From contig CAXXDV010000003.1 in the NCBI GenBank assembly GCA_963674745.2, forward strand, positions 1,952,001-2,016,000: DNA of 64,000 bases, in the 5' to 3' direction. Below the pieces are notes generated by a model. It saw nothing but the letters and a program-made list of their open reading frames with translations. It was not told the DNA's origin and ran no database searches. This DNA comes from Desulfosudaceae bacterium. Its GTDB lineage: Bacteria > Desulfobacterota > Desulfobacteria > Desulfobacterales > Desulfosudaceae. Below are positions 26,843 through 63,939 of this stretch, one piece after another (positions within the stretch are counted from its first letter, which is position 1; every line of letters begins with the position of its first letter). The position numbers were made by a program, and so were the translations under genes.

Positions 26843-26849
26843 GGCCGTC

Positions 26850-27731: not shown

Positions 27732-27748
27732 TCGATTAAAACCGTCCT

Positions 27749-28105: not shown

Positions 28106-28120
28106 AATGAACGACCCGCC

Positions 28121-29281: not shown

Positions 29282-29299
29282 GGTCTAATCTCTTTAGCC

Positions 29300-29914: not shown

Positions 29915-30067
29915 AACGGTATCAATAGCCCCTGGGACGAATCCGGTTTCAGTAACGCTTTATCATAGTGCACTTATCTGTATTGTGTAAATATAACATA
30001 TTTACAACATCATGCAAAAAAATAAAACGCTTTTTTTATAAATTAATGAATGATAGTAATAAAGAGA

Positions 30068-30952
30068 TTACAAGCTGTCAATCTTTATATCCATGCTGTA
30101 ATCACCTTCTTTGGGACCAGAGGCAATTTTTGTCTTGGAGACAATTTCTCCGGAGCCTCTGAAAATGGCGATGGGGGAGTAGAAATGGACATCGTCCAGG
30201 CGGGCACCTTCTTCAAGATCTTTGATACGTTCTTCATCAGATTTATCGATAATTAAACTGACGACATTGCCGGATTGGAAACTGACGTCAAGCTCCAACT
30301 GGTCGCCATTAGCCAGGGTAATGGCAACCGCACTGATATCCAGAAAGTCGCTATCATCAACAGTGGCGCCACCGGTAATTGCTTCTGAACGGGCAGCGCC
30401 TTTTTCATCCCATTTTTTATCCAGGATATCTTCAAAAAACGTTTTGACTTTTTTTAAATCATCTTCTGAAAAAAGGTTGTCACTTTTCCATTCGGTGAGT
30501 TGGGAAAAGGCTTCATCGGAAGACTTATAGGCAATCAGACATCGGAGAATGTTCTTGGCTGCCGCGACTCGCTGGGAGTCAATTTCAAGCAAACGGCGAA
30601 ATTCTGCGATGGCATCGTTGTACTGACCGAATTTCGCAAGTGCGACAGCCCCCTCCAGTTCTGCGGCGTGTGCGTCATTATCAGCAGATTGAGCAAAAAG
30701 ATTTCTGATCAACTGGTTGACCTCTGCTGACATCTGGGGATTATCGGAAGCCCCCTCTACTTTGACAATGCTGCTTTGAACCTTATCAATTTTTTTGGAT
30801 ATGTTTTTAAGCAGTTTTTCACGGTTGGGAAGCTGTTTACTCTTTTGAATAATCTTTTTTACACGTTCATATGTCGCCCGGGATTCATTAAACAGCCCCT
30901 GGGAACGATAAAGTTCAGCCTGCTGTAAAAGAGATTTAATTTTGTCCCGCAT
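30068..30952 (-). CDS. TPR-like helical protein with a C-terminal beta-rich (possibly degenerate PilZ-like) domain
   Basis: AELYRSQGLFNES and ALAKFGQYNDAIAEF TPR-like helices; alternating hydrophobic beta pattern at the C-terminus. Confidence 0.55.
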   Translation of the reverse strand: MRDKIKSLLQQAELYRSQGLFNESRATYERVKKIIQKSKQLPNREKLLKNISKKIDKVQSSIVKVEGASDNPQMSAEVNQLIRNLFAQSADNDAHAAELEGAVALAKFGQYNDAIAEFRRLLEIDSQRVAAAKNILRCLIAYKSSDEAFSQLTEWKSDNLFSEDDLKKVKTFFEDILDKKWDEKGAARSEAITGGATVDDSDFLDISAVAITLANGDQLELDVSFQSGNVVSLIIDKSDEERIKDLEEGARLDDVHFYSPIAIFRGSGEIVSKTKIASGPKEGDYSMDIKIDSL

Positions 30953-31092: not shown

Positions 31093-32676
31093 TTAGTTGC
31101 CGGCGATCTTTCCAGCCAGGATTCCGGCTGCTTTGACAAAATCACTGCCCATGTTAGCCGCCATGGTCACAAAAGCCAACCGGTTTTTATCAATCCCCGT
31201 CTCGTCCAGCATTCTTGAAGCTTCTTCAATCCGCCATCTGGCGTAGTTACTGCCGTATTCAGACTTGCAGTTTCCGTTATGACAGGCGGCTACAAGAACC
31301 CCGCCGGCGCCTTCAACAAACGCCGAAAGGATATATTGAATATCGACTTTTCCGGCGCAAGGCACCTTAATAATGGAAAGTTTTTCCGGAAGCGGCATGC
31401 CGAATCGGGCGGCGGCTTCAGCTGCTTCGGCGGCTGAATTTTCACAGCAGAAAGCGACAATGGCGCCAGGGGTTTTCTCCAAAGCTTTTTTAACCTCACC
31501 CGAAATATCATCATCCGTGAACGACATCAGCTGAATCGCGTCATTCGGGCATTCGCTGGCACATATGCCGCAACCCTGACAGGCCACAGGAGAAATAACC
31601 GCTTTATCATCCCAGTATATGGCCCCATGGGGACAACACCGGTAACATGTCAGGCAGATGGCGCACTTTTCCCGATCAACAACGGCGATCCGGTCTGTAG
31701 GTACTTCTTCTTTAAACAGCACCCCCAGTTCAAGTAACACACTGGCCACATCTGTAACGCAACCGGTCAGGTTCTGTGCCTGCCGGGCGCCGCCGATGAC
31801 AAAAATACCTTTACGGTTGGATTTGGCTGGAAAACGATGGACATTATCTTTCTGCAGAAACCCTGACGGTGTAATATGCAGCCCCATGACCTCGGCCAGA
31901 GAGAGATTGGCCTCATCGGTCAGATTTTTTTCCTCAACCACCAGCAAATCATGGGTGGCTTCAACCGGCCTGCCCAGTACCATATCCTGAAAAACAACGC
32001 TGGTACCGTTAATTTCGGGCGCTTCTTTCATCTTGAAATAAACGGCCCCCTTGTCACGACCGGCCTTGTATAATCTGTCCAATCCGTTATCAGCCAGCTT
32101 GATATCATTGACATAGACAGAAGCATTTCCACCGTTTTCGACAATTGCCAGCACGGATTTGAATATCCGCTTCATGATTACCGGATCGCTGTTCTGCTTC
32201 AAGCCCACCAGGAATCCGACACTTTCATTCTTGATCTTGCCATCGGCAATGCGGGCTTCGATCTGTGACAGAGAAAGGGTATTATCCGACAGGCCAATAC
32301 CGTAAGCCTCGTGTTGAGCAACGGCCGCCAGATCAGTTGAGACGACGATGGCTCCGACCTTCTTGTCCTGCTTACCGCCTTTACCATCGGAGATTCTGGC
32401 GGTGAAGTCGCCGCATACACCGGCCAGGCCGGTGACACTGACGTTATTGAAAATTTCGATATTTTTATGGGATGATGCCTGCCCGGCAATTTTCTGCCAT
32501 TCGGCCAACGCCTCATCACTTGCCCCCAGTAACGCAACCGACTGGCCGGAAGAATCAGCACCTTGTTTCGCCAGCAGGACCTGGTATCCCGCATCCGCGA
32601 TTTTGACGGCCATTCCGTCTCCTGTTAAATTACCACCGATAACCAGCACGTCGGTATTCATATTGATGTTCTCCAT
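31093..32676 (-). CDS. HdrA-like/ferredoxin/MvhD fusion (QmoB-like architecture)
   Basis: Degenerate Rossmann motif (GGNLTG), two CxxCxxCxxxCP motifs, MvhD motifs AFCC, VPCAGK and ACHNGNC. Confidence 0.85.
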   Translation of the reverse strand: MENINMNTDVLVIGGNLTGDGMAVKIADAGYQVLLAKQGADSSGQSVALLGASDEALAEWQKIAGQASSHKNIEIFNNVSVTGLAGVCGDFTARISDGKGGKQDKKVGAIVVSTDLAAVAQHEAYGIGLSDNTLSLSQIEARIADGKIKNESVGFLVGLKQNSDPVIMKRIFKSVLAIVENGGNASVYVNDIKLADNGLDRLYKAGRDKGAVYFKMKEAPEINGTSVVFQDMVLGRPVEATHDLLVVEEKNLTDEANLSLAEVMGLHITPSGFLQKDNVHRFPAKSNRKGIFVIGGARQAQNLTGCVTDVASVLLELGVLFKEEVPTDRIAVVDREKCAICLTCYRCCPHGAIYWDDKAVISPVACQGCGICASECPNDAIQLMSFTDDDISGEVKKALEKTPGAIVAFCCENSAAEAAEAAARFGMPLPEKLSIIKVPCAGKVDIQYILSAFVEGAGGVLVAACHNGNCKSEYGSNYARWRIEEASRMLDETGIDKNRLAFVTMAANMGSDFVKAAGILAGKIAGN

Positions 32677-32680
32677 ATTG

Positions 32681-34015
32681 CTATTCTCCCAGATATGTCA
32701 TGGCTTCCTCTGCTGCCTGAATTGCCTGGGCAATGGAAGCATCTATTGTTTTAGGCTGATGAGCGGTTCCAGCAACAAAAATACCCTTTTTACCGGTTGC
32801 GGCGGCATCCAGATCGCCGGAGGCGCAAAGAAAACCATCCTTGTCAAGATCAAGCCCCAACAGATCGGCCAAAACCAGATTATCCGGATTCGGTGTAATC
32901 CCGACAGATAAAACCAGTAAATCAAACGTGTCATAAACAGCCGTCCCCGCAGTTGACACCGGCCCGGTATCTTCTTCACCTTCGGCCGCCGGAGCGGTTT
33001 CCTGTTCTTCAAGGGATTTTCCGGCTGCACCATCTTCATCGTAAAAACGGATGGACAGACAATCATTTTCCGCCGGGAAGGCATCCACGGGGATGCTTCT
33101 GACGAACCGGAACTGTTCGTTACAGGCTTCATAAAACATCGGAAACTCTTTACCAATATTTTGAATATCCATATAAAAAACAGTTATTTCGGAATCAGGC
33201 TGATGATGTTTTATCGACCGCGCCGAACGAAGTGCGTAAGGGCAGCAGACCCGGGAACACCAGAGGTTACCAAGCCGCTCATCACGACTGCCGACACATT
33301 GGACAAAGGCAATTTTTCTGGCCGGTTGCCCATCAGAAGGACGTACCAGCGATCCGTTCTCCCGTTTAATCCTTTCCATATCCAGTCCGCTGATGACATT
33401 GGGGAATTTCCCGTAGCCATAGGTACTTTTCTTGGAAGGATCAAAAGCCGAAAAGCCGGTAGCGACGATCACCGCATCCGCTTTTATCGTTTCAAAAGAC
33501 GCTTTGTCATCAACATTGATCGCACCCTCGGGACAAAGTTCAACCAGTGGTTTGCAATCATGAATTTTGTTTATGTCCAGGGCGTAAAGGGGATTGTTGT
33601 TTTTTGAATATCCCCGGAGCACAGCTCCCTTGACCGGTGATTTTTCAAAACAGACGCCGCAGTTATTACATTTCTCAGAATCGATAAAAATCGGCCCTTC
33701 TTTCAGGCTTATTGTGAAGCCGTCACTGTAGTCTACTTTTTCTATTTCGGAAAAAAGATGAACCGAGATATTATTGTCGGTGCTGACATCCTTCAGCAAC
33801 TCTTCGACGCTACAGGCGCCGCACTGCATGCATTCATCAGTTGCCTTGCAGGTATAACCGATGGCGTGCCCACCTAAAAAGTTTGTTTTTTCAACAATAT
33901 GGACGCCCACACCGGAGCCTGACAGTGCCCTGGCTGCCGCCAGCCCCGCGGCACCGCCACCGATAATTACTACTTGTTTTCCAGCCATATCCGTTCTCAA
34001 GCTCCTTGTATTCAA
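32681..34015 (-). CDS. HdrA-like flavoprotein
   Basis: GGGAAG, VATG, CVGSRD, CSRVCC and GIFVAG. Confidence 0.9.
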   Translation of the reverse strand: MNTRSLRTDMAGKQVVIIGGGAAGLAAARALSGSGVGVHIVEKTNFLGGHAIGYTCKATDECMQCGACSVEELLKDVSTDNNISVHLFSEIEKVDYSDGFTISLKEGPIFIDSEKCNNCGVCFEKSPVKGAVLRGYSKNNNPLYALDINKIHDCKPLVELCPEGAINVDDKASFETIKADAVIVATGFSAFDPSKKSTYGYGKFPNVISGLDMERIKRENGSLVRPSDGQPARKIAFVQCVGSRDERLGNLWCSRVCCPYALRSARSIKHHQPDSEITVFYMDIQNIGKEFPMFYEACNEQFRFVRSIPVDAFPAENDCLSIRFYDEDGAAGKSLEEQETAPAAEGEEDTGPVSTAGTAVYDTFDLLVLSVGITPNPDNLVLADLLGLDLDKDGFLCASGDLDAAATGKKGIFVAGTAHQPKTIDASIAQAIQAAEEAMTYLGE

Positions 34016-34042
34016 AATTATCCGAACATACGATTTTAAAAA

Positions 34043-34966
34043 TCAGACTTCGGGCCTCGGAAGAACACCGGCCTGTTCCGCAATCTCGGGCACTTTATGC
34101 TCCCATTCAATTGCCATTAGATGAACACCGGCGATGCCTTTCATCTCTTTGAATTCTTCAATCTGCTCACAGGCAATCCTGATGCCTTCTTTGGCCTGTT
34201 CATTTTTCTTGACACCCTTGAGTCGATTGATTATTTCATCCGGGACATCCATCCCCGGCACGTTTTTCTTCATATACCGCGCCATACCAAGGCTTTTCAT
34301 GGGGGTAACACCGGCCAGGATAAAAACCCTATCGGTAAGCCCCATATCATTTGCCTCTTTTACCCATTCCCGCATCCTGACCATGTTGAACACGCACTGG
34401 GTCTGAATGAAATCAGCTCCGGCAGCAACCTTTTTGGCCAGACGGTGCACCCGCCACTCATAAGGCCTGGCAAAAGGATTGGCCGCGGCACCGATAAACA
34501 GCTTCGGCGGTACGTCGATGTCCTGGCCGCTCAGGAATTTCCCTTCATCCCGCATGGTTTTAACGGTATTCACCAGTTGCATGGAGTCTATATCAAAAAC
34601 GCCCTTGGATTGCGGATGATCACCGAATTGCTGATGGTCACCGGACAGACATAACATATTATGAATGCCGTGTGCATAGGCGCCGAGGATATCCGCCTGC
34701 ATGGCCAGACGGTTACGATCGCGGCAGACCATCTGGAAATTAGGCTCCAGCCCTTCTGATATCGCGAATAATGAAGCGGCAAAGCTTGACATTCTGACAA
34801 CTGCCGTCTGATTGTCGGTAATATTCACCGCGTCAACCATGTTTTTCAAGGGTTTGGCTTTTTCCCGCAGGGCTTCTACGTTGGCACCCCGGGGAGGCCC
34901 TAGTTCACCGGTAAAAGCAAAGTGACCCGCACGCAGTATTTTCTCAAGTCTGCTTTCAGATTTCAT
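34043..34966 (-). CDS. metF: Methylenetetrahydrofolate reductase catalytic subunit
   Basis: NITDNQ, CRDRNRLAMQ, LCLSGD and KVAAGADFIQTQ. Confidence 0.93.
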   Translation of the reverse strand: MKSESRLEKILRAGHFAFTGELGPPRGANVEALREKAKPLKNMVDAVNITDNQTAVVRMSSFAASLFAISEGLEPNFQMVCRDRNRLAMQADILGAYAHGIHNMLCLSGDHQQFGDHPQSKGVFDIDSMQLVNTVKTMRDEGKFLSGQDIDVPPKLFIGAAANPFARPYEWRVHRLAKKVAAGADFIQTQCVFNMVRMREWVKEANDMGLTDRVFILAGVTPMKSLGMARYMKKNVPGMDVPDEIINRLKGVKKNEQAKEGIRIACEQIEEFKEMKGIAGVHLMAIEWEHKVPEIAEQAGVLPRPEV

Positions 34967-34989
34967 AATATCCTTCTTTCCCGAAAAAA

Positions 34990-35673
34990 TTACTTTTCTT
35001 CAAAAAATGCTTTACGCTCAACATAACCAGTCTGTATCAACGTCTGTGGCGTCTGATTTCTCCAGTCATTAATCGGATTCAGCGACAGGATGTTATCAAG
35101 ACGATTCTGCGCTTTCAGACGCTGGTATATCATAAACCACGCACAGGGCTGGTCCTTGTTGATTTCACAGCTTTCACCATTAGTGCCCCCGCAGGGTCCG
35201 TTAAAGAGCGATTTGGCACACATGGTCACCGGACAGATACCACCTGTCAATCCCAGCTGACAATTGCCGCAGGCACGGCATTTTTCCTCATACCAGCCCG
35301 CATCGCGGTTTACACCGATAAAATTGGTGTTCACCGCCGGAAAAACCGGTGTTTCAGGGTACCTTTCCGCCAGGAATTGAATACCCGCGCCACAGGCCAT
35401 GGAAAGGAGCGCACCGTGCCGGGGCACCAGATCATCCAGTTGGGCCAGGAACTCCATGTCACACTGACGCTGCACGGTTATTCCCTGGAATTCCGCGGTG
35501 CGGCCCTTTTCCCTGGCACTCATGGCCAACTCGGCATTCAAAATACCGACCTCTTTTTCACCACCCGCAAGGCAGACGGTGACACAGGTAGCACATCCCA
35601 CGGTCAGCACATTCTGGTAGTCTTTTATAAAATTCTCAATCTCTTCAAATGGTTTTCGTTCCGCTACTATCAT
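34990..35673 (-). CDS. metV: MTHFR Fe-S/Zn subunit (MTHFR_C)
   Basis: CRACGNC, CPVTMCAKSLFNGPCGG and PCAW; start set at MIVAERK. Confidence 0.9.
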   Translation of the reverse strand: MIVAERKPFEEIENFIKDYQNVLTVGCATCVTVCLAGGEKEVGILNAELAMSAREKGRTAEFQGITVQRQCDMEFLAQLDDLVPRHGALLSMACGAGIQFLAERYPETPVFPAVNTNFIGVNRDAGWYEEKCRACGNCQLGLTGGICPVTMCAKSLFNGPCGGTNGESCEINKDQPCAWFMIYQRLKAQNRLDNILSLNPINDWRNQTPQTLIQTGYVERKAFFEEK

Positions 35674-35918
35674 AGAGCATCCTCCTAATTGCGACAAACA
35701 ACATCATAGCCGATGTACAAAAGAGAAAACATGCCATAAAAACTGAAAAAAAGTCAATAAATTTTACAAAAATTCAAATTTTTTTTAACGTTTTCAGATA
35801 ACTATTTTTTAATACTGTAAAAAACACGCTGACCGGACACAGTTTTGATTGACATATAAAAAATGGGTTGCCTAATATACATATTTTTACTCATATACTT
35901 ACTTAACCCAAACACTAA

Positions 35919-37078: not shown

Positions 37079-38464
37079 CTAAAGCCCGCCGCGAACCGGA
37101 CGGACCAACGCATTTGCATACATATAAGTCTTATCTACGCCACTCGGGCTGTTACCGCTGTCAAAATGAACAAACCATGCTGAGCTCGCATCAGGGGCAT
37201 GAGTCGTTGAGGACCAGAAAATGTTGGAGTAGTAGGAAATTGAACTTGTTTTTGGAAAATAATTCTCATTTATGGCCTGCTGATATCTTCCATAATCCAC
37301 AAGAGACCTTAATTCCTTGATGTTCGGCATCCGCCAGTCGGAATAACCGGCCAAAGTCATGTCCTGGCAATACCTCAAGGCGTCCTGCCAGGTCATGGCC
37401 TCCGAAGATGAATCCCGCGCCCACATCAGATGCTTACCATTCTCGGTAACCGTGACCGTGCCGTCGCCATTATCCGTATATATCGGCGATGACCCGATCC
37501 CACGAACGGCACGCACGGAAAAGTTTTTTTGTTTATCGTTCTTGACGATGCCGCCGTCATCAAAATCCAAAGACCAGGCGGAACTGGCATCGGCGGCATT
37601 CATCGTGGCAGACCAGTAACTGGCATCTATCGTGTTCGGAAAAAAATCCGTATTAATCGCCGGACTGCGGCCAATAAAATTTGCGATTGAATTCAATTCC
37701 TTTATGGTCGGCAAACGCCAGTCTGAAAATCCTCCGAAATTTTCGTCGTTCAGTTGAGCCATAAACGCGTCACCGGCACGATCCCAGTCCGATACCAGGT
37801 TTTTGTCATGGATGGTACCGTCTTCGGTTTTGACCTCCCAGATCAGACCGGTCAAATTATCCCTTACCATGGCCCAGTTAAGGGCGTCTTTTGTTAAAGG
37901 GAAACCACCTGCGTCCAGCCTGGTAAAGGGTGAACTGATTGTGGCATAACAGGCATCCTGACCGTAAAAGTCCTCGCCAGGTGACGGGCAGGGATAAAGG
38001 AAATAAATCGTATCATAGCATCGGGTCTGGCCGGTATCAGAAACAAACGAGTTGCCCAGCAAACACGCTTCATCATTTATGCCGTCACCGTCATTGTCTA
38101 TCCCGTCATCGCAGACTTCCGGCAGGCAATCCTCATCAACCAGCCCGTCGCAGTCGTTATCAATGCCCACACAAAATTCTTTTGCCTGAGGATTAATCGT
38201 CGGGTCTCTATCGTCACAATCCAATCGTTTGCCGCAGCCTTCTTCAACATAAAAGCCATCTCCGTCATTGTCTGTGCAGCCGACAGAATCTTCTTTTTGC
38301 ACACTATTGCCGGGACCGCTGCTGTCGCCAAAACTGCAGCCGGACGTGCCGACGAGAATCACCAATAAAAGGCCCGTCATCATCACGAAAAAGACAGAAC
38401 GAACCTTGTTAAAAATCTCTGATATGTGTTTCATGGACGTCTCCTTTTGGGGCGATGCTATCAT
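37079..38464 (-). CDS. Putative lipoprotein with Asp/Cys-rich metal-binding repeats and two DUF1566 (Lcl C-terminal) domains
   Basis: Lipobox-like TSGC, DCDD..P and DGIDNDxDG repeats, GxSDWRxPxIKEL twice, VRAVR/VRPVR. Confidence 0.87.
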   Translation of the reverse strand: MIASPQKETSMKHISEIFNKVRSVFFVMMTGLLLVILVGTSGCSFGDSSGPGNSVQKEDSVGCTDNDGDGFYVEEGCGKRLDCDDRDPTINPQAKEFCVGIDNDCDGLVDEDCLPEVCDDGIDNDGDGINDEACLLGNSFVSDTGQTRCYDTIYFLYPCPSPGEDFYGQDACYATISSPFTRLDAGGFPLTKDALNWAMVRDNLTGLIWEVKTEDGTIHDKNLVSDWDRAGDAFMAQLNDENFGGFSDWRLPTIKELNSIANFIGRSPAINTDFFPNTIDASYWSATMNAADASSAWSLDFDDGGIVKNDKQKNFSVRAVRGIGSSPIYTDNGDGTVTVTENGKHLMWARDSSSEAMTWQDALRYCQDMTLAGYSDWRMPNIKELRSLVDYGRYQQAINENYFPKTSSISYYSNIFWSSTTHAPDASSAWFVHFDSGNSPSGVDKTYMYANALVRPVRGGL

Positions 38465-54198: not shown

Positions 54199-55992
54199 TT
54201 ATTCATCCGTTTTCAATACCGCAAGGAAAGCGGACTGGGGAATGGCCACCTTGCCCACGGTCTTCATCCGCTTCTTACCCTTTTTCTGCTTCTCCAGGAG
54301 CTTGCGCTTACGGCTGATATCCCCGCCGTAGCATTTGGCGGTCACGTCTTTTCGCAGCGGTGAAATGGTTTTTCGGGAGATGATCTGTGAACCGATGGCA
54401 CCCTGGATAGCAACCTTGAACATCTGCCGGGGGATCTCGTCCCGGAGCCTTTCGCAGATCTGACGGGCCCTTTCTACAGATTTGCTGCGGTGGATCAGTT
54501 GTGAAAAAGCGTCCACCTTTTCACCGTTGAGCAGAATATCAACTTTGACCAGGTCGGCTTCCCGGTAGTCCTTGACCTCATAATCAAAAGAGCCATACCC
54601 CTGGGTAACCGTCTTCAGCCGATCATAAAAGTCATAAACCACTTCGGCCAGGGGCAGCTCGAAAATCATTTCCAGCCGGTTGCCGGTCAGGTAGTGATAG
54701 GTGGTATTGATTCCCCGCCTTTCCAGGCAGAGATTCATGACCGCCCCCATGTAACGGTCCGGTGTCATGATCGAAGCCCGGATATACGGTTCCCGGGTGA
54801 GCTCGATTCTGGTCGGATCCGGATAGGCATCCGGATTGTCGATAAACTCGACGCTGCCGTCATGAAGCGTGATTTCAAAACGAACCGACGGTGCGGTTAC
54901 AATCATGGAAATATCATATTCCCGCTCCAAACGCTCCTGAACGATTTCCAGGTGCAGCAAGCCCAGAAAACCACAGCGGAATCCGAAACCCAGGGCAGCA
55001 GAGGTGGTTTTCTCAAACACCAGCGAGGCATCGTTCAACTGGAGTTTGTCCAGGGCGGTGGCCAGTTCCTCATAATCATCCGAGGCAATGGGGAATAGGG
55101 AAGAAAAGACCATGGGCTTGGCTTCTTTAAAACCCGGCATGGGTGCCGCGCATCGATTTTTCTTCAATGTAATGGTGTCCCCGGAACGGGTGTCGCTGAC
55201 GGTCTTGATACCGGCAATGATATAACCGACCGCTCCGGCGGAAAGCTGCTTGACCGGTTTGCGCGTAATCTGAAAAATACCGACCTCCTCCACCTTGTGA
55301 ACCGCTCCGGTTGACATGAGCAGAATCTCGTCCCCGGCCTTGACCGTACCGTCAAACAGGCGGCAGTGAATGACCGTGCCGCGATAATCATCATAATGGG
55401 AGTCAAAAATCAGGGCCCGCAACGGTGCCCCGGGGTCGCCCTGGGGCGACGGTAACCGGTGAATAATGGCTTCCAGGACCGCCTCTATACCGATATTGGC
55501 CTTGGCCGAAATCTGCAGGGCCATAGCGGAATCCAGGCCCAGGTCATCTTCGATTTCCTCCAGTACCCGGTCCACATCCGCTGCCGCAAGGTCTATCTTG
55601 TTAATCACCGGAATAATTTCCAGGTCATGTTCCAGTGCCAGGTAAAGGTTGGCCATGGTCTGTGCTTCCACGCCCTGACTGGCATCAATCAGCAGCAGCG
55701 CCCCTTCGCAGGAAGCAATGGCGCGGGATACTTCATAGGAGAAATCCACATGCCCGGGGGTATCGACAAAATTCAAAGTATACAGCTTGCCGTCTTTGGC
55801 CCGGTATGGCAAAAGCACGGTCTGGCTTTTGATGGTAATGCCCCGTTCTTTTTCGATGTCCATACTGTCAAGTATCTGGTCATGGAAATCCCTGGCCGAG
55901 ACCAGTTCCGCTGTTTGAATAAACCGGTCACTTAAAGTCGATTTGCCATGATCGATATGCGCGATAATGGAAAAATTTCGAATCTCTTTCAT
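54199..55992 (-). CDS. lepA: Elongation factor 4
   Basis: IRNFSIIAHIDHGKSTL, GFRCGFLGLLH and KCYGGDISRKRKLL; start moved to the ATG at 55992. Confidence 0.97.
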   Translation of the reverse strand: MKEIRNFSIIAHIDHGKSTLSDRFIQTAELVSARDFHDQILDSMDIEKERGITIKSQTVLLPYRAKDGKLYTLNFVDTPGHVDFSYEVSRAIASCEGALLLIDASQGVEAQTMANLYLALEHDLEIIPVINKIDLAAADVDRVLEEIEDDLGLDSAMALQISAKANIGIEAVLEAIIHRLPSPQGDPGAPLRALIFDSHYDDYRGTVIHCRLFDGTVKAGDEILLMSTGAVHKVEEVGIFQITRKPVKQLSAGAVGYIIAGIKTVSDTRSGDTITLKKNRCAAPMPGFKEAKPMVFSSLFPIASDDYEELATALDKLQLNDASLVFEKTTSAALGFGFRCGFLGLLHLEIVQERLEREYDISMIVTAPSVRFEITLHDGSVEFIDNPDAYPDPTRIELTREPYIRASIMTPDRYMGAVMNLCLERRGINTTYHYLTGNRLEMIFELPLAEVVYDFYDRLKTVTQGYGSFDYEVKDYREADLVKVDILLNGEKVDAFSQLIHRSKSVERARQICERLRDEIPRQMFKVAIQGAIGSQIISRKTISPLRKDVTAKCYGGDISRKRKLLEKQKKGKKRMKTVGKVAIPQSAFLAVLKTDE

Positions 55993-56002
55993 TATGGTAC
56001 TC

Positions 56003-56146
56003 TCGTAAAAAGTCAAAATTTGGATGGCAAAGTAAAAAGTTCAAGATCAAGGCGCGCAAATCCTGAGGAATGCAGCGTACATGGGAGTACGTGAAATTCC
56101 GAAGGATGCAGCGCAACGAAGATATTGGACTTTTTACGAATCCATC
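56003..56146. mobile_element. MITE-like element with a duplicated left end
   Basis: GATGGCAAAGTAAAAAGTTCAA (56023) versus TTGGACTTTTTACGAATCCATC (ends 56146); extra TCGTAAAAAGTC copy at 56003; GTAC-N6-GTAC hairpin. Confidence 0.75.
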
Positions 56147-57076
56147 TCATCTGGTCATTACCTTTAAATACAGATCACCCGTTGTTCCATCGGCCCTTCT
56201 TTTACCAAGTCCGGCCAGCCGCAAGGTTGAGCCGGGTTTGATGCCGGCCGGCACTTTTACCCGGTAAAGCCGGGATTGAAAACCCCAGGGAATATTTACG
56301 GTTTTAGTGGTTCCGGTCAGCGCTTCCACACTGGTAATGGTGATATTCCCATACAGATCGTCATCATTGGCGCCGCCGCCGGGGCGGATCACTTGCAGGC
56401 GGGGCGTCGTCTTTTTCGAAACCGCTTGCCGGTATCGGTTTTCAGAAATTTTCTCCGGACCGACACTGAAAAATTTTAAAAATGCTATCCCGGCGACAAA
56501 TCCGCCCACATGGGCCCACCAGGCGACTCCGGTAGCGCCGGCAGTCGTGGATGCGGCGTTCAGCAATTGAATGACAAACCATACTCCAAGCAGAAAAAAA
56601 GCCGGGATTTCAATAAAAAGCGGGATAAAAAAAAGCGGCACCAGGGTCAGCACTCTGGCATGGGGGAACAGCACCAGGTAAGCGCCCATCACGCCGGCGA
56701 TAGCCCCGCTGGCGCCCACGATGGGAACGGGCGAGCCGAGATTCAGCATCAGATGAGCCAGGCCGGAGGCTAATCCGCACCCGAGATAAAATATCAGGTA
56801 TCGTGCCGGTCCCAGCCGGTCCTCGATATTGTCACCAAAAATATACAGGAACCACATATTTGAGAGCAGATGCCAGAACCCGCCGTGCAGAAACATATAA
56901 GAAAAAAGCGGGATAATCTTCACCTGTGCCGGCACCAGGCCGAAATGATGAAAAAAGGCCTCCCTGCTGGCGCCGTAAAACAGCTCCAGAACGTAAACAA
57001 TTATACAGACCGCAATAATCGTGTTGTTGACGACAGGATGGGTTTCCGAAGGGTTAATGTCACGAATCGGTATCAT
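56147..57076 (-). CDS. Rhomboid intramembrane serine protease fused to a DnaJ C-terminal-like domain
   Basis: HLLSNM, GASG and AHVGG; C-terminal DLY...EALTG...VPAG...LRL.GLG...GDLY. Confidence 0.9.
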   Translation of the reverse strand: MIPIRDINPSETHPVVNNTIIAVCIIVYVLELFYGASREAFFHHFGLVPAQVKIIPLFSYMFLHGGFWHLLSNMWFLYIFGDNIEDRLGPARYLIFYLGCGLASGLAHLMLNLGSPVPIVGASGAIAGVMGAYLVLFPHARVLTLVPLFFIPLFIEIPAFFLLGVWFVIQLLNAASTTAGATGVAWWAHVGGFVAGIAFLKFFSVGPEKISENRYRQAVSKKTTPRLQVIRPGGGANDDDLYGNITITSVEALTGTTKTVNIPWGFQSRLYRVKVPAGIKPGSTLRLAGLGKRRADGTTGDLYLKVMTR

Positions 57077-57116
57077 GCTATCTCATTTGATAAGCGCGGC
57101 TGATTGACCACACCGG

Positions 57117-57956
57117 TCAGGCACCGGAATCAATGCGCATGCTCAGGTCAACAGCCCTGGCCGAATGGGTCAGGAATCCGGCGGAAATAATATCCGCGCC
57201 CGCTTCTGCAATTTCCCGCAGGTGCTGTTTATCCACGGAACCGGACACCTCTACCATGGCCCGGCCGTTAATCCGTTTAACGGCCTCCCTGATCTGCGGC
57301 AGGTCCATGTTGTCCAGCATAATCACATCCGCTCCAGCGGCAACAGCCTCGTCCACTTCTTCAAATGTGGCGGTCTCCACTTCAATTCGAACCAGGTGGT
57401 GCGTATACGCCCGTGCCCGTTGTACGGCCTGGGAAATCCCGCCACAGGCAACAATATGGTTATCCTTGATTAAAACGCCATCAAACAGACCGATACGATG
57501 ATTGTGCGCCCCGCCGACACGGACAGCGTATTTTTCAAGCATCCGCAATCCCGGCAGGGTCTTGCGGGTATCCACCAGCCGGGCGCCGGTTCCCTTTAAC
57601 ATGTCAACCCAGGAACGCGTCAGGGTGGCGATTCCGGAAAGGTGTTGCAGAAAATTCAGGGCTGTTCTTTCCGCCTTGAGGATTGCGGCCAGATCACCGC
57701 TGACCTCAAACACCCTGGTTCCGGCGTCTATGGCAGCACCGTCACGACAGAGCGCGGTAAACGTCACCCGGGGATCCAGAAGCAAAAAAACCCTGCCGGC
57801 CACTTCAAGACCGGCCAGGACCAGTGCTTCCTTGGCCACAACATAACCGTGCCCTTCTGTGTTTTCCGGGATCAGGGCATCGGTCGTAATATCGCCTGTG
57901 CCGATATCTTCCCGCAAGGCGCTTTCGATAACGATATCAATATTCATATCCATCAT
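57117..57956 (-). CDS. nadC: Nicotinate-nucleotide pyrophosphorylase
   Basis: ED...GDITT, ERTALN, DTRKTLPG, KDNH and MLDNM. Confidence 0.97.
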   Translation of the reverse strand: MMDMNIDIVIESALREDIGTGDITTDALIPENTEGHGYVVAKEALVLAGLEVAGRVFLLLDPRVTFTALCRDGAAIDAGTRVFEVSGDLAAILKAERTALNFLQHLSGIATLTRSWVDMLKGTGARLVDTRKTLPGLRMLEKYAVRVGGAHNHRIGLFDGVLIKDNHIVACGGISQAVQRARAYTHHLVRIEVETATFEEVDEAVAAGADVIMLDNMDLPQIREAVKRINGRAMVEVSGSVDKQHLREIAEAGADIISAGFLTHSARAVDLSMRIDSGA

Positions 57957-60622
57957 GGCGCAATACCCATTAATTTATCAAGGGTTGCCTGGAGCTTATC
58001 TTTCCTGTCCAGCAGTGCCTGGTTGTTCTCCCGGGCCTTTTCAATCACGTTTTCCGGTGCTTTTTTCAAAAAATCACTGTTGTTCAGTTTTTTAAACGTC
58101 GCTTCGATGTCCCGGCTGATTTTAGTCATCTCTTTTTCAATGCGTGCTTTTTCCTTGTCAACATCGATAACCCCTTCCAGCAGGACATAAACCGTGGCAT
58201 CCTTAACGACCGATGTAGCTGCAAATTTCGGTTTTTCCGCTGAAGGCAACACGTCAAACGAGCCCAGCCGGGCCAGGTTCATAATCATGTCCCGGTTGGC
58301 GTGTATCTGATCGCGAATGGTATCACTATCGACATGAACCAGCACATCCAGACTTTTTCCCGGGGAGATGTTCATCTCTCCGCGGACATTCCGGATACCC
58401 GTTATCACATCCATGACCAGTGCCATCTCGGATTCCGCGTCCGGATCCTTTTGTAAACCATTGGCCGATTCCGGTGACGGCGGAAATTCGGCTTTCATTA
58501 TCGAACCTTCGGTACCCGGCAGAATCTGCCATATTTCCTCGGTAACAAAAGGAATGAACGGATGAAGCATGATCAGCATGTCCCGCAGCACCCGCCACAG
58601 AACACGTTTTGAAGCCGCCATCCGGATTTCGCTCTTGTTCCCATAAAGATCCGGCTTAACCGCTTCCAAGTACCAGTCACAGAATTCGTGCCATGAAAAG
58701 CGGTATAACGCCCCGGCCCCTTCATTGAAGCGATAATGATCCAGGGCATCGGTCACTTCTTCACGCACGGTTGCCAGTCTTGACAGGATCCACCTGTCGG
58801 CCAGGCTGAGATTATCCAGTTCTCCATCAGCACAGGCATCATCTATATGCATCATGGAAAAACGGGCGGCATTCCACAGTTTGTTAATAAAATGGCGGTA
58901 GCCCTCGATCCTGTTCTCGGACAGCTTGATGTCGCGGCCCTGGGCAGCAAAGGCGGCCAGTGTAAAACGCAGGGCGTCGGCACCATGAACGTCGATGACG
59001 GTGATGGGATCGATCACGTTCCCGGTGGATTTGCTCATTTTTTTACCGTCTTTATCCCGGACCAGGGCATGAATATAGACGTCTCGAAAAGGCACGTCCT
59101 CCATAAAATGAAGCCCCATCATCATCATACGGGCAACCCAGAAAAACAGAATATCGAATCCGGTCACCAGAACACTGGTCGGGAAGTAGGTTTTCAGCAA
59201 CGGTGTGGTATCCGGCCACCCCAGAGTGGAAAAAGGCCACAAGGCCGAACTGAACCAGGTGTCCAGGACATCCTCATCCTGTCTCAAGGCATTGTTTCCG
59301 CAGGCGGTACACGTCTCCGGGGCCTCTTCAGCCACGATTTCCTGCCCGCACTGGTCGCAATACCAGGCAGGGATACGATGTCCCCACCAGATCTGACGGG
59401 AAACACACCAGTCCCGGATATTGTCCATCCATTCATAGTATGTTTTTTCCCAGTGTTCCGGAACGATCATTGTCTTTCCGTTTTTGACCGCCCTGGTGGC
59501 TACTTCCGCCAGTGGCTTGACATTGACAAACCACTGTTTGGACAGATTCGGCTCGACCACGGTATGGCAACGATAGCAGGTACCCACGCTGTGGGTCAGG
59601 TCTTCGACTTTTTCCAGCAGGCCTTCTTCTTGTAGCGCAGCCACAACCGCCTTGCGACAAGCAAAACGGTCCAGTCCCGCAAACCGATCGCCGGCTTCGG
59701 GTGTCATTTTTCCCGTTTCATCAATGACTTTAACCATGTCCAGGTCATGTTTGCGCCCCAGTTCAAAGTCATTGGGGTCATGAGCGGGCGTGACCTTTAA
59801 GGCGCCGGTACCGAATGAAATATCCACGTAACTGTCCTCGATGACCGGTATGATTCGGTCGGTCAGAGGCAAACGGACTTTCCGTCCGGCTGAACCGGCA
59901 TATCGCTTGTCTTCCGGATGCACGGCCACCGCCGTGTCTCCCAGCATGGTTTCCGGCCGGGTCGTGGCCACGACAAAGCCCTTTCCCCCGTCATGTGCGG
60001 GATAACGGATATGGTACAGTGCACCGTTCTGCTCCTCATGCTCGACTTCAATATCAGCCAGGGCGGTGTGGCATCGGGGGCACCAGTTGATCAGATACTC
60101 ACCCCGGTAAATCAATCCTTCCTGGTAAAGCCGGACAAAAACCGTCCGGACAGCCCGGGAAAGGCCTTCGTCCATGGTAAACCGCTCCCGGTCCCAATCA
60201 CAGGAAGCACCCAGTCGTTTCAACTGCCGGATAATCCTGCCGCCATAGTCCCGGCGCCATTCCCAGACACGGTCAATAAATTTTTCCCGGCCCAGGTCGT
60301 GCCGACTCTTTTTTTCTTCCCGCAACTGTCGTTCAACCACGTTCTGAGTGGCGATACCGGCATGATCCGTCCCGGGCATCCAGAGCACGTTATCCCCGAA
60401 AAGCCGCCGATAACGACACAGAATGTCCTGGAGTGTAATATTAAGGGCATGCCCCATATGCAGCATGCCGGTTACATTGGGCGGCGGGATAACAATTGCG
60501 TAGCACCGGCTGTCGCCGGGGTCATCCGGCGCGGCGAAAAGTTTTTCACGTTCCCAGAAATCATACCACCGCTGTTCGACACCTGTCGGGTCATAACCTT
60601 TGTCAAGCAAGTTGGACGTCAT
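57953..60622 (-). CDS. valS: Valine-tRNA ligase
   Basis: PPPNVTG.LHMGH, KMSKS and C-terminal coiled coil. Confidence 0.98.
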   Translation of the reverse strand: MTSNLLDKGYDPTGVEQRWYDFWEREKLFAAPDDPGDSRCYAIVIPPPNVTGMLHMGHALNITLQDILCRYRRLFGDNVLWMPGTDHAGIATQNVVERQLREEKKSRHDLGREKFIDRVWEWRRDYGGRIIRQLKRLGASCDWDRERFTMDEGLSRAVRTVFVRLYQEGLIYRGEYLINWCPRCHTALADIEVEHEEQNGALYHIRYPAHDGGKGFVVATTRPETMLGDTAVAVHPEDKRYAGSAGRKVRLPLTDRIIPVIEDSYVDISFGTGALKVTPAHDPNDFELGRKHDLDMVKVIDETGKMTPEAGDRFAGLDRFACRKAVVAALQEEGLLEKVEDLTHSVGTCYRCHTVVEPNLSKQWFVNVKPLAEVATRAVKNGKTMIVPEHWEKTYYEWMDNIRDWCVSRQIWWGHRIPAWYCDQCGQEIVAEEAPETCTACGNNALRQDEDVLDTWFSSALWPFSTLGWPDTTPLLKTYFPTSVLVTGFDILFFWVARMMMMGLHFMEDVPFRDVYIHALVRDKDGKKMSKSTGNVIDPITVIDVHGADALRFTLAAFAAQGRDIKLSENRIEGYRHFINKLWNAARFSMMHIDDACADGELDNLSLADRWILSRLATVREEVTDALDHYRFNEGAGALYRFSWHEFCDWYLEAVKPDLYGNKSEIRMAASKRVLWRVLRDMLIMLHPFIPFVTEEIWQILPGTEGSIMKAEFPPSPESANGLQKDPDAESEMALVMDVITGIRNVRGEMNISPGKSLDVLVHVDSDTIRDQIHANRDMIMNLARLGSFDVLPSAEKPKFAATSVVKDATVYVLLEGVIDVDKEKARIEKEMTKISRDIEATFKKLNNSDFLKKAPENVIEKARENNQALLDRKDKLQATLDKLMGIAP

Positions 60623-60686: not shown

Positions 60687-60712
60687 AAAAAAGGGATTAT
60701 TAAAAAATCCCT
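60687..60712 (-). terminator. Putative intrinsic terminator between the acidic-protein gene and valS
   Basis: Minus strand AGGGATT-loop-AATCCCT followed by a T run. Confidence 0.5.
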
Positions 60713-60801
60713 CTTGGTTTTCAATGCTTTTATGATTTTTTTAAAATGAAATACTCAGTGTGTGTCCGGCAACGGCTGTATGAACATCCAAAAAGGCGGG
60801 A

Positions 60802-62784
60802 TTATTCGTCTCCTGACAATAATTTAGAAAGCTTGTCGATTTCCTGCCGAATGGTTTTTTCTACCATTTGTTCGATCATTTTTTCGAGCTTCTCTGCATA
60901 TGTTTCCCTGATGGCCCGAACCAGGGCGTCTTCGAGTTGCTGTTCGGAAACAAGACCGGCCCCGGCCTCGATGATCTGTTTTTTCACACCTTCATGCCAG
61001 GCATGGATGGTTTCCGATTCAAAATCCGTGGGGATATCTATTTCCCGGCGATTATGTACACGCGCCGAGACTTTCCCTGTTTCCATAATTTTCTTCACAT
61101 CGGCTTCGGCTTCAGAAAGTTCAAAGGCGGTTTCCAGTTCGTTTTCCAGGGAGTTCGAGAATTCACCATTTTCAGCGGCAGGTTCAGTCTCCTGCTTTCT
61201 GTGCTCTCGAGACGGGATCTTGCTGTCCAGACCGCCGGCCGTGATATCCTCGAGTTCAACCGTTTCCGTTAATTCAAGTAACTGATCATCTTCCGGTGCA
61301 ACCGCAGCTGTTTCTTCTTCAGGCACGTCTTCGTCTCTAATGCCCCCGACTGTTTCCGGTATGCCTTCTTCTTCTGCTGATGCCTCAATTGCTTCTTCTG
61401 AGAACAGGCTGTCTTCAGTTAAGTCAAACAGCTCATCGCCGGACGGGCCTTCGGCTTTAACCACCTCTTGGGCTTTTTCACCAAGAATATCCTCAACCGA
61501 GATGGTTTTATCGCATTGTTGGTCATCTATTTCTTCGGCCTCATCATCCAGACCATCCATATCATCAAAGGTCAATTCGGTGGTCTCCGACATTTTCAGC
61601 AATTCATCATCGTCCTCCGCGCTCCCTTCATCAAAAAACGCGTCTTCATCAAAATCATCAATATCCTCGGTCATGTCCAGCAGATCTTCATCTTCTTCCG
61701 ACAAGCCCAGCAGCTCTTCATCTTCGTCATCATCATAAGCAGCAAGGCTGTCTTCATCTTCGACGTCGATCGTAATTTCACGCAGATCGAGGAATTCTCC
61801 GGGCACCTCTTCTTCAGTCAGACCGGCATCAACCGCAGGAATCGGCCCGGTTTCTTCATTGGCCGTGATTGGTACCGCCACCTTATCGGCAACGTCCGTC
61901 AACTCCAGTACGTCTTCAGCGTCGTCGGTCAGTTCCAGCACATCCTCATCCGCCGAATCTTCAAGTTGAATCGCTTCCTCTTCTTCGCCTTCTTCAAGAT
62001 CCAGGGTATCTTCATCATCCCCGGTCAAATCCAGAATATCTTCTTCGGTTTCGTCCGTAAGCTCAAAAACATCTTCATCTTCAGCATCGTCGGTCAGTTC
62101 CAGCACATCCTCATCCGCCGAATCTTCAAGTTGAATCGCTTCCTCTTCTTCGCCTTCTTCAAGATCCAGGGTATCTTCATCATCCCCGGTCAAATCCAGA
62201 ATATCTTCTTCGGTTTCATCCGTAAGCTCAAAAACGTCTTCATCTTCAGCATCGTCGGTCAGTTCCAGCACATCCTCATCTTCTGCGTCATCCGTCAATT
62301 CCAACACATCGTCTTCGGCTTCATCACTTAATTCCAGAATATCATTTTCGTCCTGAATTTCATCGCTCAGTTCCAGAATATCCGACTCGTCTTCCGCTTC
62401 ATGATTCAACTCCAGGACATCTTCTTCGGCATCATCCATCAATTCCAGCACATCATCGTCTTCGGCATCATCCGTCAAATCCAGGACGTCGTCTTCGTCT
62501 TCAACTGTATCGGTCAGCTCTAGCAGGTCTTCCGCTTCATCCTCTTCATCGGTCAAGTCAAAAACGTCCTCATCCGTTTCCGAGGCTCCCGACAAATCAA
62601 TGGCATCCAGTTCATCGTCTTCGTCATTGACAATATCATTAATAGAAATCGTCTCTTCATCTTCAGGCGATCCGACAACAATGGTTCGTTCCGTCATCTC
62701 GAGGATTTCAAGATCATCGTCCGTAGCCATTATGTCACTTATAGGTTCCGGCTTCTTTTTATCGGATTTTTTATCGTTTGCCAT
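60802..62784 (-). CDS. Very acidic, disordered repeat protein with a PopZ/RomR-like C-terminal helical region
   Basis: Many D(V/I)L(E/D)LTD repeats; C-terminus LEKMIEQMVEKTIRQEIDKL; ATG at 62784 follows AGGGGG. Confidence 0.7.
   Translation of the reverse strand: MANDKKSDKKKPEPISDIMATDDDLEILEMTERTIVVGSPEDEETISINDIVNDEDDELDAIDLSGASETDEDVFDLTDEEDEAEDLLELTDTVEDEDDVLDLTDDAEDDDVLELMDDAEEDVLELNHEAEDESDILELSDEIQDENDILELSDEAEDDVLELTDDAEDEDVLELTDDAEDEDVFELTDETEEDILDLTGDDEDTLDLEEGEEEEAIQLEDSADEDVLELTDDAEDEDVFELTDETEEDILDLTGDDEDTLDLEEGEEEEAIQLEDSADEDVLELTDDAEDVLELTDVADKVAVPITANEETGPIPAVDAGLTEEEVPGEFLDLREITIDVEDEDSLAAYDDDEDEELLGLSEEDEDLLDMTEDIDDFDEDAFFDEGSAEDDDELLKMSETTELTFDDMDGLDDEAEEIDDQQCDKTISVEDILGEKAQEVVKAEGPSGDELFDLTEDSLFSEEAIEASAEEEGIPETVGGIRDEDVPEEETAAVAPEDDQLLELTETVELEDITAGGLDSKIPSREHRKQETEPAAENGEFSNSLENELETAFELSEAEADVKKIMETGKVSARVHNRREIDIPTDFESETIHAWHEGVKKQIIEAGAGLVSEQQLEDALVRAIRETYAEKLEKMIEQMVEKTIRQEIDKLSKLLSGDE
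61922..62280. repeat. 165-bp (55-aa) near-perfect tandem duplication inside the acidic gene
   Basis: TCGTCGGTCAGTTCCAGCACATCCTCATC recurs at 61922, 62087 and 62252. Confidence 0.93.
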
Positions 62785-63180
62785 GTTTCCCCCTAAAGGT
62801 GGCATTTTCAAACACAGTCTTCTCGCAGGTCATAACAGTGACCACCTGAGAAGAGCGGAAACTATAGGATGCGAATGTATTACCCGCTTCCCGACTTCCC
62901 CCTGACAAAAAAATATAATAAGTTAAACAATATTAATACCGTTTATCACACAATATGTCAAGGTATTTGGCGCCTTAAAACCATCCCCCCCCGGGGGAGT
63001 CGTCGGCTTATTCAGTGAATGCCCTTTTCAACTTTAAATAGTGTCGTTTTTCTCCGGTAATAGATGAACATGCCTTTAAATAACAAGCGCTTTGAATTTT
63101 ATTGAACAACTGGTAAAATTAAAATTAATACTTTATTACCGGATATGTAATAATCAAAATATTTAATAAAGGCGCCCTTA

Positions 63181-63939
63181 ATGAGACGTTTTTTTATCAA
63201 CCAGCCGGCTGCTCCCGGAACTTTGTATACCATACCCCATCCGGACGCCAATCACATCAGCAACGTACTTCGAATGAAAACCGGTGATGAAATATGGCTG
63301 TTTGACGGCCAGGGTTATGAATTTAAGGCGCGGGTCAACGACATTGCCGGCAACGGGGTAACCGTCGAGATAATCGATCGTTTGTTCTGTCCGTCGGAAT
63401 CACCCGTGCGTCTCACCGTCGGGCAGGCGGTTTTAAAACACAAAAAACTCGACACCACCCTCAGGCAGCTGACCGAACTGGGTATTGACGGTTGGATACC
63501 GGTCAACACGGAACGATCCGTTTCAAAAATCGATAACAAAAAAGAAAACGCAAAAATCGCGCGGTGGCAAACCATTATCCAGGAATCGGTCAAGCAATGC
63601 CAGCGGGGACAGATTCCCATTGTTTATCCGCCGGTTAACTTCCCGGAAGCCCTTTCTCTGAGTCGAAATCATGACATTAATATCATTTTCAGCGACAAGA
63701 ACGGAGAACCTCTTGACCGGATAAAGACCCGTATCCATTGCCCCGGAGCATCTATTTTCCTTCTACTGGGTCCTGAAGGCGGATTCACGCCCCGGGAAAT
63801 AGCCTCGGCCAGGCAGCATGGTTTCATTTCAGCCGGTTTGGGCCCGCGCATCCTTAAAGCGGATACCGCCGCCATTGCGGCCTGCGCCATTCTCCAGACT
63901 CTTTTTGGCGATATGGGAAAAAACGATCAATCTTCCTAA
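63181..63939 (+). CDS. rsmE: 16S rRNA m3U1498 methyltransferase
   Basis: H...VLR, ELG, QC.R, GPEGGF and LGPRILKADTA. Confidence 0.94.
   Translation: MRRFFINQPAAPGTLYTIPHPDANHISNVLRMKTGDEIWLFDGQGYEFKARVNDIAGNGVTVEIIDRLFCPSESPVRLTVGQAVLKHKKLDTTLRQLTELGIDGWIPVNTERSVSKIDNKKENAKIARWQTIIQESVKQCQRGQIPIVYPPVNFPEALSLSRNHDINIIFSDKNGEPLDRIKTRIHCPGASIFLLLGPEGGFTPREIASARQHGFISAGLGPRILKADTAAIAACAILQTLFGDMGKNDQSS

Follow-up and report, generated by a model that had tools for sequence, protein, structure and literature searches.

A long acidic, motif-rich protein encoded upstream of valS in a Desulfosudaceae bacterium and its possible kinship with the pole organiser PopZ

The minus strand of a 64,000-nucleotide (nt) stretch of the genome of a Desulfosudaceae bacterium (contig CAXXDV010000003.1; hereafter the window, i.e. 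this whole stretch) carries, upstream of valS, the gene of a long and strongly acidic protein, which is the subject of the present analysis. The open reading frame (ORF) extends over 60802..62811 and was listed with 669 amino acids (aa) counted from a TTG at 62811. Translation from the ATG at 62784 gives a protein of 660 aa, and this start was preferred because of the position of a ribosome-binding-site-like AGGGGGAAAC immediately 5' of the ATG. An earlier note on this DNA, made from the letters alone, had described an ORF of about 660 aa at 60802..62784, which is present as described, and had called its product overwhelmingly Asp/Glu. Asp and Glu are indeed the two commonest residues (122 Asp and 143 Glu, together 40.2%), albeit "overwhelmingly" is somewhat strong. 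Lys and Arg contribute 5.0%, the net charge amounts to -232, and proline makes up 2.1% of the residues. Pfam and NCBIfam scans of the whole 660-aa protein returned no domain (Pfam to E ≤ 10), and this includes the receiver domain, in line with the absence claimed for it.

The body of the protein is a polyanionic, predicted-disordered chain with motifs of the type hh(D/E)LT. The roughly 20 DVLELTD-type units mentioned in the earlier note were recovered as 20 copies of the relaxed pattern [VILF][LF][ED][LM][TSNM], for which 1000 shuffles gave a mean of 0.14 and a maximum of 2, and as 8 copies of the strict pattern D[VI]L[ED]L[TS]D, for which the same number of shuffles gave none. With the regular expression used for the family as a whole, hh(D/E)L(T/S/K/N/M), 18 copies are counted. 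This is the maximum among all family members compared, the runners-up having 15 copies (64 listed genome ORFs) and 12 copies (212 database proteins), and "strongly amplified" was thus a fair wording. Within the dense part of the array the units follow each other at distances of 10-13 aa, with 32 aa at two points. In addition to a 165-nt unit, Tandem Repeats Finder reported periods of 33-39 nt over 62189-62503. The 55-aa blocks at residues 169-223 and 224-278 are identical at 55 of 55 positions, so that duplication still enlarges the array. The second acidic region also holds looser variants of the motif, including the conserved DELLKMSETTE. The positions of these elements, and of the neighbouring genes, are collected in Table 1.

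Table 1. Features of the acidic-protein gene and its surroundings (positions in the window; residues numbered from the ATG at 62784)
Feature	Positions	Strand	Basis or remark
Acidic-protein coding sequence	60802..62784	minus	660 aa from ATG 62784; stop 60802-60804; relatives in at least 112 genome loci
Putative 9-codon N-terminal extension, if upstream TTG is used	62785..62811	minus	ORF listed from TTG 62811
Short basic tip MANDKKSDKKKP, residues 1-12	62749..62784	minus	sole Lys-rich stretch before the C-terminal region
Subfamily N-terminal motif DDDLEILEMTERTIVV, residues 22-37	62674..62721	minus	conserved in close relatives
Dense DVLELTD-type array, residues 70-298	61891..62577	minus	16 units in poly-Asp/Glu
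Recent tandem duplication, 165-nt (55-aa) unit x 2.2	61913..62280	minus	98% nucleotide identity
Second acidic region, residues 299-540, less repetitive	61165..61890	minus	3 relaxed units (368, 452, 502)
Semi-conserved element EFSNSLENELETAFEL, residues 541-556	61117..61164	minus	family pattern (D/E)F.ESLG.EL (alignments A1, A4)
Subfamily-specific block KVSARVHNRREIDIPTDFESETIHAWHE, residues 571-598	60991..61074	minus	invariant columns in alignment A1
Terminal amphipathic helix, family-defining, residues 613-657	60814..60948	minus	Pfam register, structure prediction, conserved stripe
Terminator-like hairpin (60715-60689) overlapped by promoter-like site (60724-60696)	60689..60724	minus	consensus matches only
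valS, valine-tRNA ligase	57953..60622	minus	NF004349, 1272 bits; conserved downstream neighbour
nadC	57117-57956	minus	conserved block downstream of valS
Rhomboid with DnaJ_C domain	56147-57076	minus	conserved block
lepA	54199-56016	minus	conserved block (54199..57956 overall)
rsmE, divergent upstream neighbour	63181..63939	plus	divergent in 42 of 57 loci with ≥ 1.3 kb upstream

The C-terminal amphipathic segment announced by the earlier note was found within residues 613-657. Hydrophobic positions recur every 3-4 residues over about 40 residues, and the resulting stripe is conserved at positions 617, 621, 624/625, 628/629, 633, 636/637, 641, 645, 649, 652 and 656. Columns 631-634, 636-637, 641-645 and 648-649 were fixed by the search pattern described below, and conservation there is uninformative; yet several columns free of this pattern (Q616, L617, E618, L621, R623, I625, L652, K653 and L656) are 85-100% conserved. 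AlphaFold2 (AF2) modelling of the last 80 aa with a 100-sequence alignment gave a short helix (residues 10-26 of the model), into which the end of the KVSARVHNRREIDIPTDFESETIHAWHE block falls, and a 44-residue helix at positions 34-77, the blocks of the predicted local distance difference test (pLDDT) lying at 81-95. In the 210-aa family member P0054, residues 1-155 were predicted with a pLDDT of 40-60, i.e. as disordered, and the sole helix, at 161-209, reached 95-98; no ordered N-terminal helix appeared in this model. A sequence search of the PDB with the N-terminal 130 aa gave no matches, and the C-terminal 150 aa drew only designed PPR repeats (E 0.01-0.03), which were taken as chance helix likeness. 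In a separate observation, the helix of a 122-aa family member (L035:5947-6315) weakly resembled the trimeric GCN4 isoleucine-zipper adaptor (3wpr, E 0.11; 2wpr, E 1.8), which in both entries is fused to autotransporter fragments. The likeness is not significant, and it is suggestive at most of coiled-coil character, with which it fits; this and the conserved hydrophobic stripe are all that speaks for a trimeric coiled coil of the PopZ kind.

Relatives of the protein were found at several levels of distance. A word-indexed search with residues 530-660 returned two close relatives in the band of 363-1155 aa. Five elements recur in close relatives: D(E/D)DLEILEMTERT near the N-terminus, the acidic array, the stretch DELLKM(S/T)ET, SARVHNR.EI.IP.DF.SETIHAWHE as a near-invariant block, and the terminal helix. 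The motif DDDLEILEMTERTIVV is kept in P0002, P0003, P0005, P0008, L011 and L070. The basic tip has its counterpart in the Lys/Arg-rich N-termini of relatives. When the last 119 aa were turned into a profile and searched against 1.84 billion representatives, 96 proteins of 60-660 aa were retrieved at E ≤ 1e-3, 10 of them at E ≤ 1e-10 and 6 at E ≤ 1e-30, most of which align only at profile positions ~70-116 and with their own extreme C-terminus. None of 95 representatives reached any Pfam threshold, one LptF/LptG-fused oddity excepted. Likewise, a full-length profile of 30 PopZ-sized members (alignment A4) was scored on 8000 candidates and gave 328 clusters at E ≤ 10; the best 120 of these carried no precomputed Pfam domain, and the named ones among them were all "hypothetical protein" from Desulfosarcina, Desulfobacteraceae, Desulfobacterales or "Delta-/Proteobacteria" metagenome-assembled genomes (MAGs).

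At the DNA level, a 57-nt degenerate pattern for the helix, which as protein fits 66 of 98 family sequences, matched the window once, at the acidic-protein gene. In the genome collection it matched at least 116 stretches, at least 112 of which are acidic ORFs ending in the helix; this conservation of the terminal helix led to the rejection of a spurious ORF as an explanation for the acidic protein. L005, L007, L028 and L115, from Firmicutes or Anaeroplasma, lie outside any acidic C-terminus and were set aside as chance matches to the pattern. The true loci come, among others, from the complete Desulfosarcina widdelii and D. variabilis genomes and from a Desulfosudis oleivorans MAG, and the named ones among those listed are all of Desulfobacterales type bar one Magnetococcales MAG. 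The family is large, bears no Pfam or NCBIfam name, and is seen here in Desulfobacterales.

The common anatomy, as drawn from the 64 complete genome ORFs among the listed loci, consists of near-N-terminal hh(D/E)LT motifs, an acidic disordered body and one confident C-terminal helix. Length ranges from 122 to 696 aa (median 267.5), Asp plus Glu from 21 to 41% (median 32%), and proline from 0.5 to 10.4% (median 4.6%). At least one strict hh(D/E)L(T/S/K/N/M) motif is present in 57 of the 64 ORFs, the first lying within 80 aa of the start in 56, and the commonest forms are EEIIELTD and EDIIELTD. Alignment A4 is collinear, with most members beginning with an IIELT motif. The number of motifs rises with protein length (Spearman 0.53, p 7e-6), and linker length changes rapidly by tandem duplication.

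A few members of the set are peculiar. In the 247-aa P0012, the oddity mentioned above, an LptF/LptG permease domain (6-213) runs into the family helix (201-246); a frameshift or a chimeric gene call is the probable cause, no real fusion. The 65-aa P0058 consists of the family helix alone and is nevertheless called "23S rRNA maturation-related 3'-5' exoribonuclease YhaM" by one source, evidently a mis-annotation. In each of two contigs of one MAG (bin.38; L038 and L075) a family gene lies between rsmE on its upstream and valS on its downstream side, which suggests two strains or a mixed bin, no pair of paralogs. Finally, the Magnetococcales MAG encodes on the minus strand of contig JADGBX010000009.1 (L018:5971-8040) a protein of 689 aa with 36% Asp/Glu, a family-like terminal helix and an EEILASL motif like that in helix H1 of PopZ. 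It scored 24.2 bits on the family model, where pattern-selected false positives gave 13-17, and 13.5 bits on DUF2497, the Pfam family of PopZ, and with these scores it was not upheld as a bridge between the family and PopZ. It is kept as a possible distant family member, and it could also be a link to PopZ or a chance match.

The acidic gene had been placed upstream of valS, and the two genes indeed lie on the same strand with a gap of 179 nt. The gap holds a terminator-like hairpin and a promoter-like site, so that the adjacency need not mean co-transcription. Whether the adjacency is conserved had been set as a check, and it was followed with the window's own neighbours as tblastn queries against the listed true loci, 77 of which have long flanks, 75 of these with enough downstream DNA, and a further 35 only ~250 nt of flank. 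In 74 of the 75 assessable loci valS stands on the same strand 61-535 nt downstream; the sole exception is L018, in which nadC comes directly next and no valS occurs within 6 kb. The first 33-54 residues of ValS are visible in 11 of the 35 loci with short flanks. Further out, nadC follows valS in 55 of the 63 loci whose downstream DNA reaches at least 3.7 kb, and rsmE is the divergent upstream neighbour in 42 of the 57 with at least 1.3 kb upstream. As the genomes are related, the synteny with valS stands for stability within an order and for no repeated independent association.

Comparison with PopZ was made through the Pfam family DUF2497, which was the top Pfam match of the isolated C-terminus of the window protein (17.2 bits, E 0.007, cutoff 27), residues 613-653 aligning with profile positions 34-74 of 75. 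The best score in the family was that of the Desulfosudis member L043 (26.4 bits, E 9.6e-6), and one of three close relatives matched at E ≤ 10. DUF2497 was matched by 25 of 100 family C-termini at E ≤ 0.01, compared with 3 of 100 for the next Pfam family, and by 8 of 15 at E ≤ 1 in a smaller set. The register of the matches is constant, covering profile positions ~33-74 of 75 and ending 5-8 residues short of the end of the protein. As control, the same loci supplied the coiled-coil arm of ValS, which is rich in Glu and Lys: all 62 arms matched their own family, and at most 1 of 62 matched DUF2497, a bound set by the absence of DUF2497 among the 25 families listed. In the Atlas comparison, a cluster that is 54% DUF2497 took rank 5 for the window C-terminus (0.85) and rank 1 among named clusters for that of L043 (0.83), scores of 0.83-0.89 being leads only by the tool's own calibration. 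Direct searches did not reach PopZ itself. The C-terminus of L043 as bridge query gave 7 matches, all of them family members, the best 120 of the 328 matches to the full-length profile were likewise all family members, and tblastn against plasmids gave no match for PopZ/DUF2497 proteins.

The resemblance to PopZ extends beyond the helix. The sequence of wild-type Caulobacter PopZ printed in Supplementary Data 1 of PMC9512792 contains DDEVLELTD in the acidic linker and EEILASIRRII in H1, and the DVLELT motif ascribed to PopZ in the earlier note is thus confirmed. By eye, without a computed alignment, the last 40 aligned residues of PopZ and window residues 616-655 share 10 of 40 identities with no gap, and the shared stretch stops 3 residues before the C-terminus in PopZ and 5 before it in the window protein; also by eye, DDDLEILEMTERTIVV shares EIL....R.I with the H1 core EEILASIRRII. 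PopZ is described as starting with H1, continuing with a disordered linker of 78 aa that is acidic and rich in proline, and ending with helices H2, H3 and H4 (PMC9512792). H1 binds clients and the acidic linker tunes fluidity (PMC9512792, PMC12999525), and H1 is also reported to dock back on the helix (PMC12999525). The linker has an acidic fraction of 0.29, a longer linker raises both saturation concentration and fluidity, and added valency compensates (PMC9512792). The H3H4 part is a conserved trimeric coiled coil from which hexamers, filaments and the condensate are built, the hexamers requiring H2 and the loop upstream of H3H4 (PMC12999525). The adjacency of popZ and valS, which the earlier note had also named, is stated in PMC5686542, according to which popZ of Agrobacterium and that of Caulobacter have no other context in common than valS, a few hundred bases downstream.

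In combination, four lines converge to link the family with PopZ, namely the sub-threshold but constant DUF2497 register, the DDEVLELTD element, the collinear architecture and the downstream valS. The reading preferred here, with a probability of roughly 0.55, is that the window carries a genuine gene encoding an extreme member of an unnamed family, and that this family is most likely a distant relative of PopZ. Taken separately, homology of the family to PopZ appears fairly probable from these comparisons, and a pole-organising role, argued by analogy, is given slightly less than even odds. By threshold the window protein is outside DUF2497. The earlier description of a receiver-less RomR/PopZ-type protein accordingly keeps its PopZ-like half as the best reading, short of formal membership, and is not supported in its RomR half.

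If the analogy with PopZ holds, the terminal helix would form a parallel coiled-coil oligomer (a trimer in PopZ), and such oligomers would stack into higher-order assemblies in nucleoid-free space, for example at the poles. The acidic chain would oppose condensation by electrostatic repulsion and thereby tune its readiness and fluidity. The DVLELTD-type units could be short linear "stickers" that, like H1 in PopZ, bind clients or dock onto the helix of the same protein, and 18-20 sticker copies would make for an unusually multivalent hub; it is speculation that a linker of ~600 aa with this many stickers fits the length-valency trade-off of PopZ. More tentatively, PopZ might have arisen outside Alphaproteobacteria, as one branch of an older valS-linked superfamily of acidic scaffolds also found in Desulfobacterales, with (D/E)(V/I)(L/I)(E/D)LTD as an ancestral functional motif that was duplicated from 1-2 to 18-20 copies in the window protein. 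The element would then be a client-binding or self-docking sticker that occurs once in the supposedly unconserved linker of PopZ, and tandem duplication would adjust linker length and, with it, valency, both of which have been shown to determine the properties of PopZ condensates.

Several observations weigh against kinship with PopZ or a PopZ-like function. The 27-bit threshold of DUF2497 was reached by none of 95 and none of 100 family members, and 75 of 100 family C-termini gave no match at E ≤ 0.01. Profile positions 1-32 (H2/loop) were never aligned, and the subfamily-specific block sits in their place. The ValS-arm control itself drew consistent sub-threshold matches to ABC_tran_CTD in 36 of 62 cases; coiled-coil-like helices thus attract cross-family matches below threshold, and helix similarity alone is no proof of homology. 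Proline is scarce, at ~2% in the window protein and 4.6% in the family median (maximum 10.4%), as against 23-29% in the PopZ linkers of Caulobacterales (PMC9512792). AF2 assigned no order to the motifs in P0054, the valS synteny within one order may reflect shared descent alone, and a polyanion of ~600 aa might oppose condensation, since longer linkers raise the saturation concentration of PopZ. Four of these points (matches that are all sub-threshold, half a profile aligned, the behaviour of the control helix and the proline-poor linker) would be expected of a protein that is unrelated to PopZ and came by its acidic disordered chain and coiled-coil anchor through convergence, serving for instance as cation buffer, nucleic-acid mimic or entropic spacer and having no part in pole organisation, in which the PopZ resemblance stems from composition and generic helix features. 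Such an origin is considered unlikely, though worth keeping in view: the sub-threshold matches are specific for DUF2497 (25/100 versus 3/100) and always in the same terminal register, a near-identical heptapeptide occurs in the linker of PopZ, and the order of elements and the downstream valS are the same, so that convergence would require four independent coincidences.

The near-invariance of the valS adjacency, shared with popZ according to PMC5686542, could also mean that the function is tied to valS, the protein being a tRNA-mimicking polyanion that binds or regulates valyl-tRNA synthetase (ValRS), or the gene an expression platform for valS. We know of no ValRS-binding feature. The hairpin and promoter-like site between the genes, the variable gap, the possible Magnetococcales member with no valS nearby, and the established functions of PopZ, which as described in PMC9512792 and PMC12999525 among others are unrelated to ValRS, make this improbable. 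Less probable still is that the protein, as a RomR-type one without receiver, works in an MglA/MglB polarity module. A small Ras/Arf-like GTPase is encoded in the window beside PilZ, DUF4388/cyclic-nucleotide-binding and TPR proteins, and the earlier note had proposed that the acidic protein acts with this "MglA at 29300". There is no evidence for such a link: the GTPase match (~30 bits) lies 31 kb away, none of the 12 context ORFs scanned showed a Roadblock/MglB domain, and no receiver domain was found in the protein, in 95 representatives or in the best 120 of its 328 relatives.

Some further observations concern the surroundings of the gene. The divergent promoter region between it and rsmE is AT-rich (37-43% GC) and contains a C5/G8 hairpin, CTCCCCCGGGGGGGG, at 62984-62999. 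The fusion of a rhomboid protease with a DnaJ C-terminal domain encoded downstream of valS-nadC (56147-57076) recurs in 51 of the 77 listed loci with long flanks. The GTPase gene (29300-29914) belongs to a one-strand cluster at 25883-30952, together with genes for a DUF4388 plus cyclic-nucleotide-binding protein (28121-29281), a PilZ protein (27749-28105), a TPR protein (30068-30952) and a weakly ParB-like ORF (25883-26842), which from its gene content may be a polarity or motility signalling module. At 31093-35697 two HdrA-like proteins, a MetF-type methylenetetrahydrofolate reductase and its C-terminal partner protein (DUF5981) are encoded, as expected for a sulfate reducer that uses the Wood-Ljungdahl pathway, and this gene content speaks for an origin of the window in Desulfobacterales. 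The product of 37079-38464, in which an Lcl C-terminal domain (223 bits) is combined with a MopE-type metal-binding motif, is possibly adhesin-like and located at the surface.

Among bacterial hubs that combine a self-assembling helix with a disordered, charged linker, PopZ serves as the reference case, and we know of no pole organiser in the sulfate reducers. PopZ is treated as alphaproteobacterial in PMC9512792 and PMC12999525, and the titles and abstract openings of the PopZ literature touching Desulfobacterales or Deltaproteobacteria report no family of this kind. If the two are related, the family would supply candidate pole organisers for a major anaerobic group, the origin of the PopZ design and of its linkage to valS would predate the split of the two phyla, and attention would be drawn to the VLELTD element as a functional site inside the PopZ linker. 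The natural spread of the family in length (122-696 aa) and motif copies (0-18) would then also serve to test how linker length and valency shape assembly.

Among known polar hubs, HubP/FimV of Vibrio and Pseudomonas are large proteins with many acidic repeats that organise the pole. They possess a LysM domain, a membrane span and a FimV C-terminal domain, whereas no LysM or FimV domain was found in the window protein (Pfam, E ≤ 10). RomR, a polar hub of Myxococcus and Bdellovibrio, combines a low-complexity region with an acidic, Glu-rich C-terminal part; unlike the window protein and the relatives examined, it carries an N-terminal receiver. A preprint describes RomR as an essential polar hub.

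The closest likeness is to PopZ of Caulobacter crescentus, in which an acidic disordered linker likewise separates a short N-terminal element from the end helix, a (D/E)VLELTD heptapeptide lies in the linker, valS follows downstream, and a conserved helix of the H3H4 type stands at the very C-terminus, the window helix aligning with DUF2497 positions ~33-74. Conversely, the window protein is 660 aa long as against 177 aa, has 18-20 copies of the motif as against one, and is poorer in proline as set out above; its family stays below the DUF2497 threshold with no match to the H2/loop half, unlike PopZ, and is found in Desulfobacterales, whereas PopZ belongs to Alphaproteobacteria. Agrobacterium tumefaciens PopZAt, as described in PMC5686542, is similar: it is longer (333 aa) than the Caulobacter protein, comprises H1, an acidic PED region and C-terminal helices, and has valS downstream. 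It is a recognised PopZ ortholog with H2-H4, while the window protein has one long terminal helix and the subfamily-specific block. Still, with its 333 aa and only valS shared with Caulobacter, PopZAt shows that length and context vary within true PopZ.

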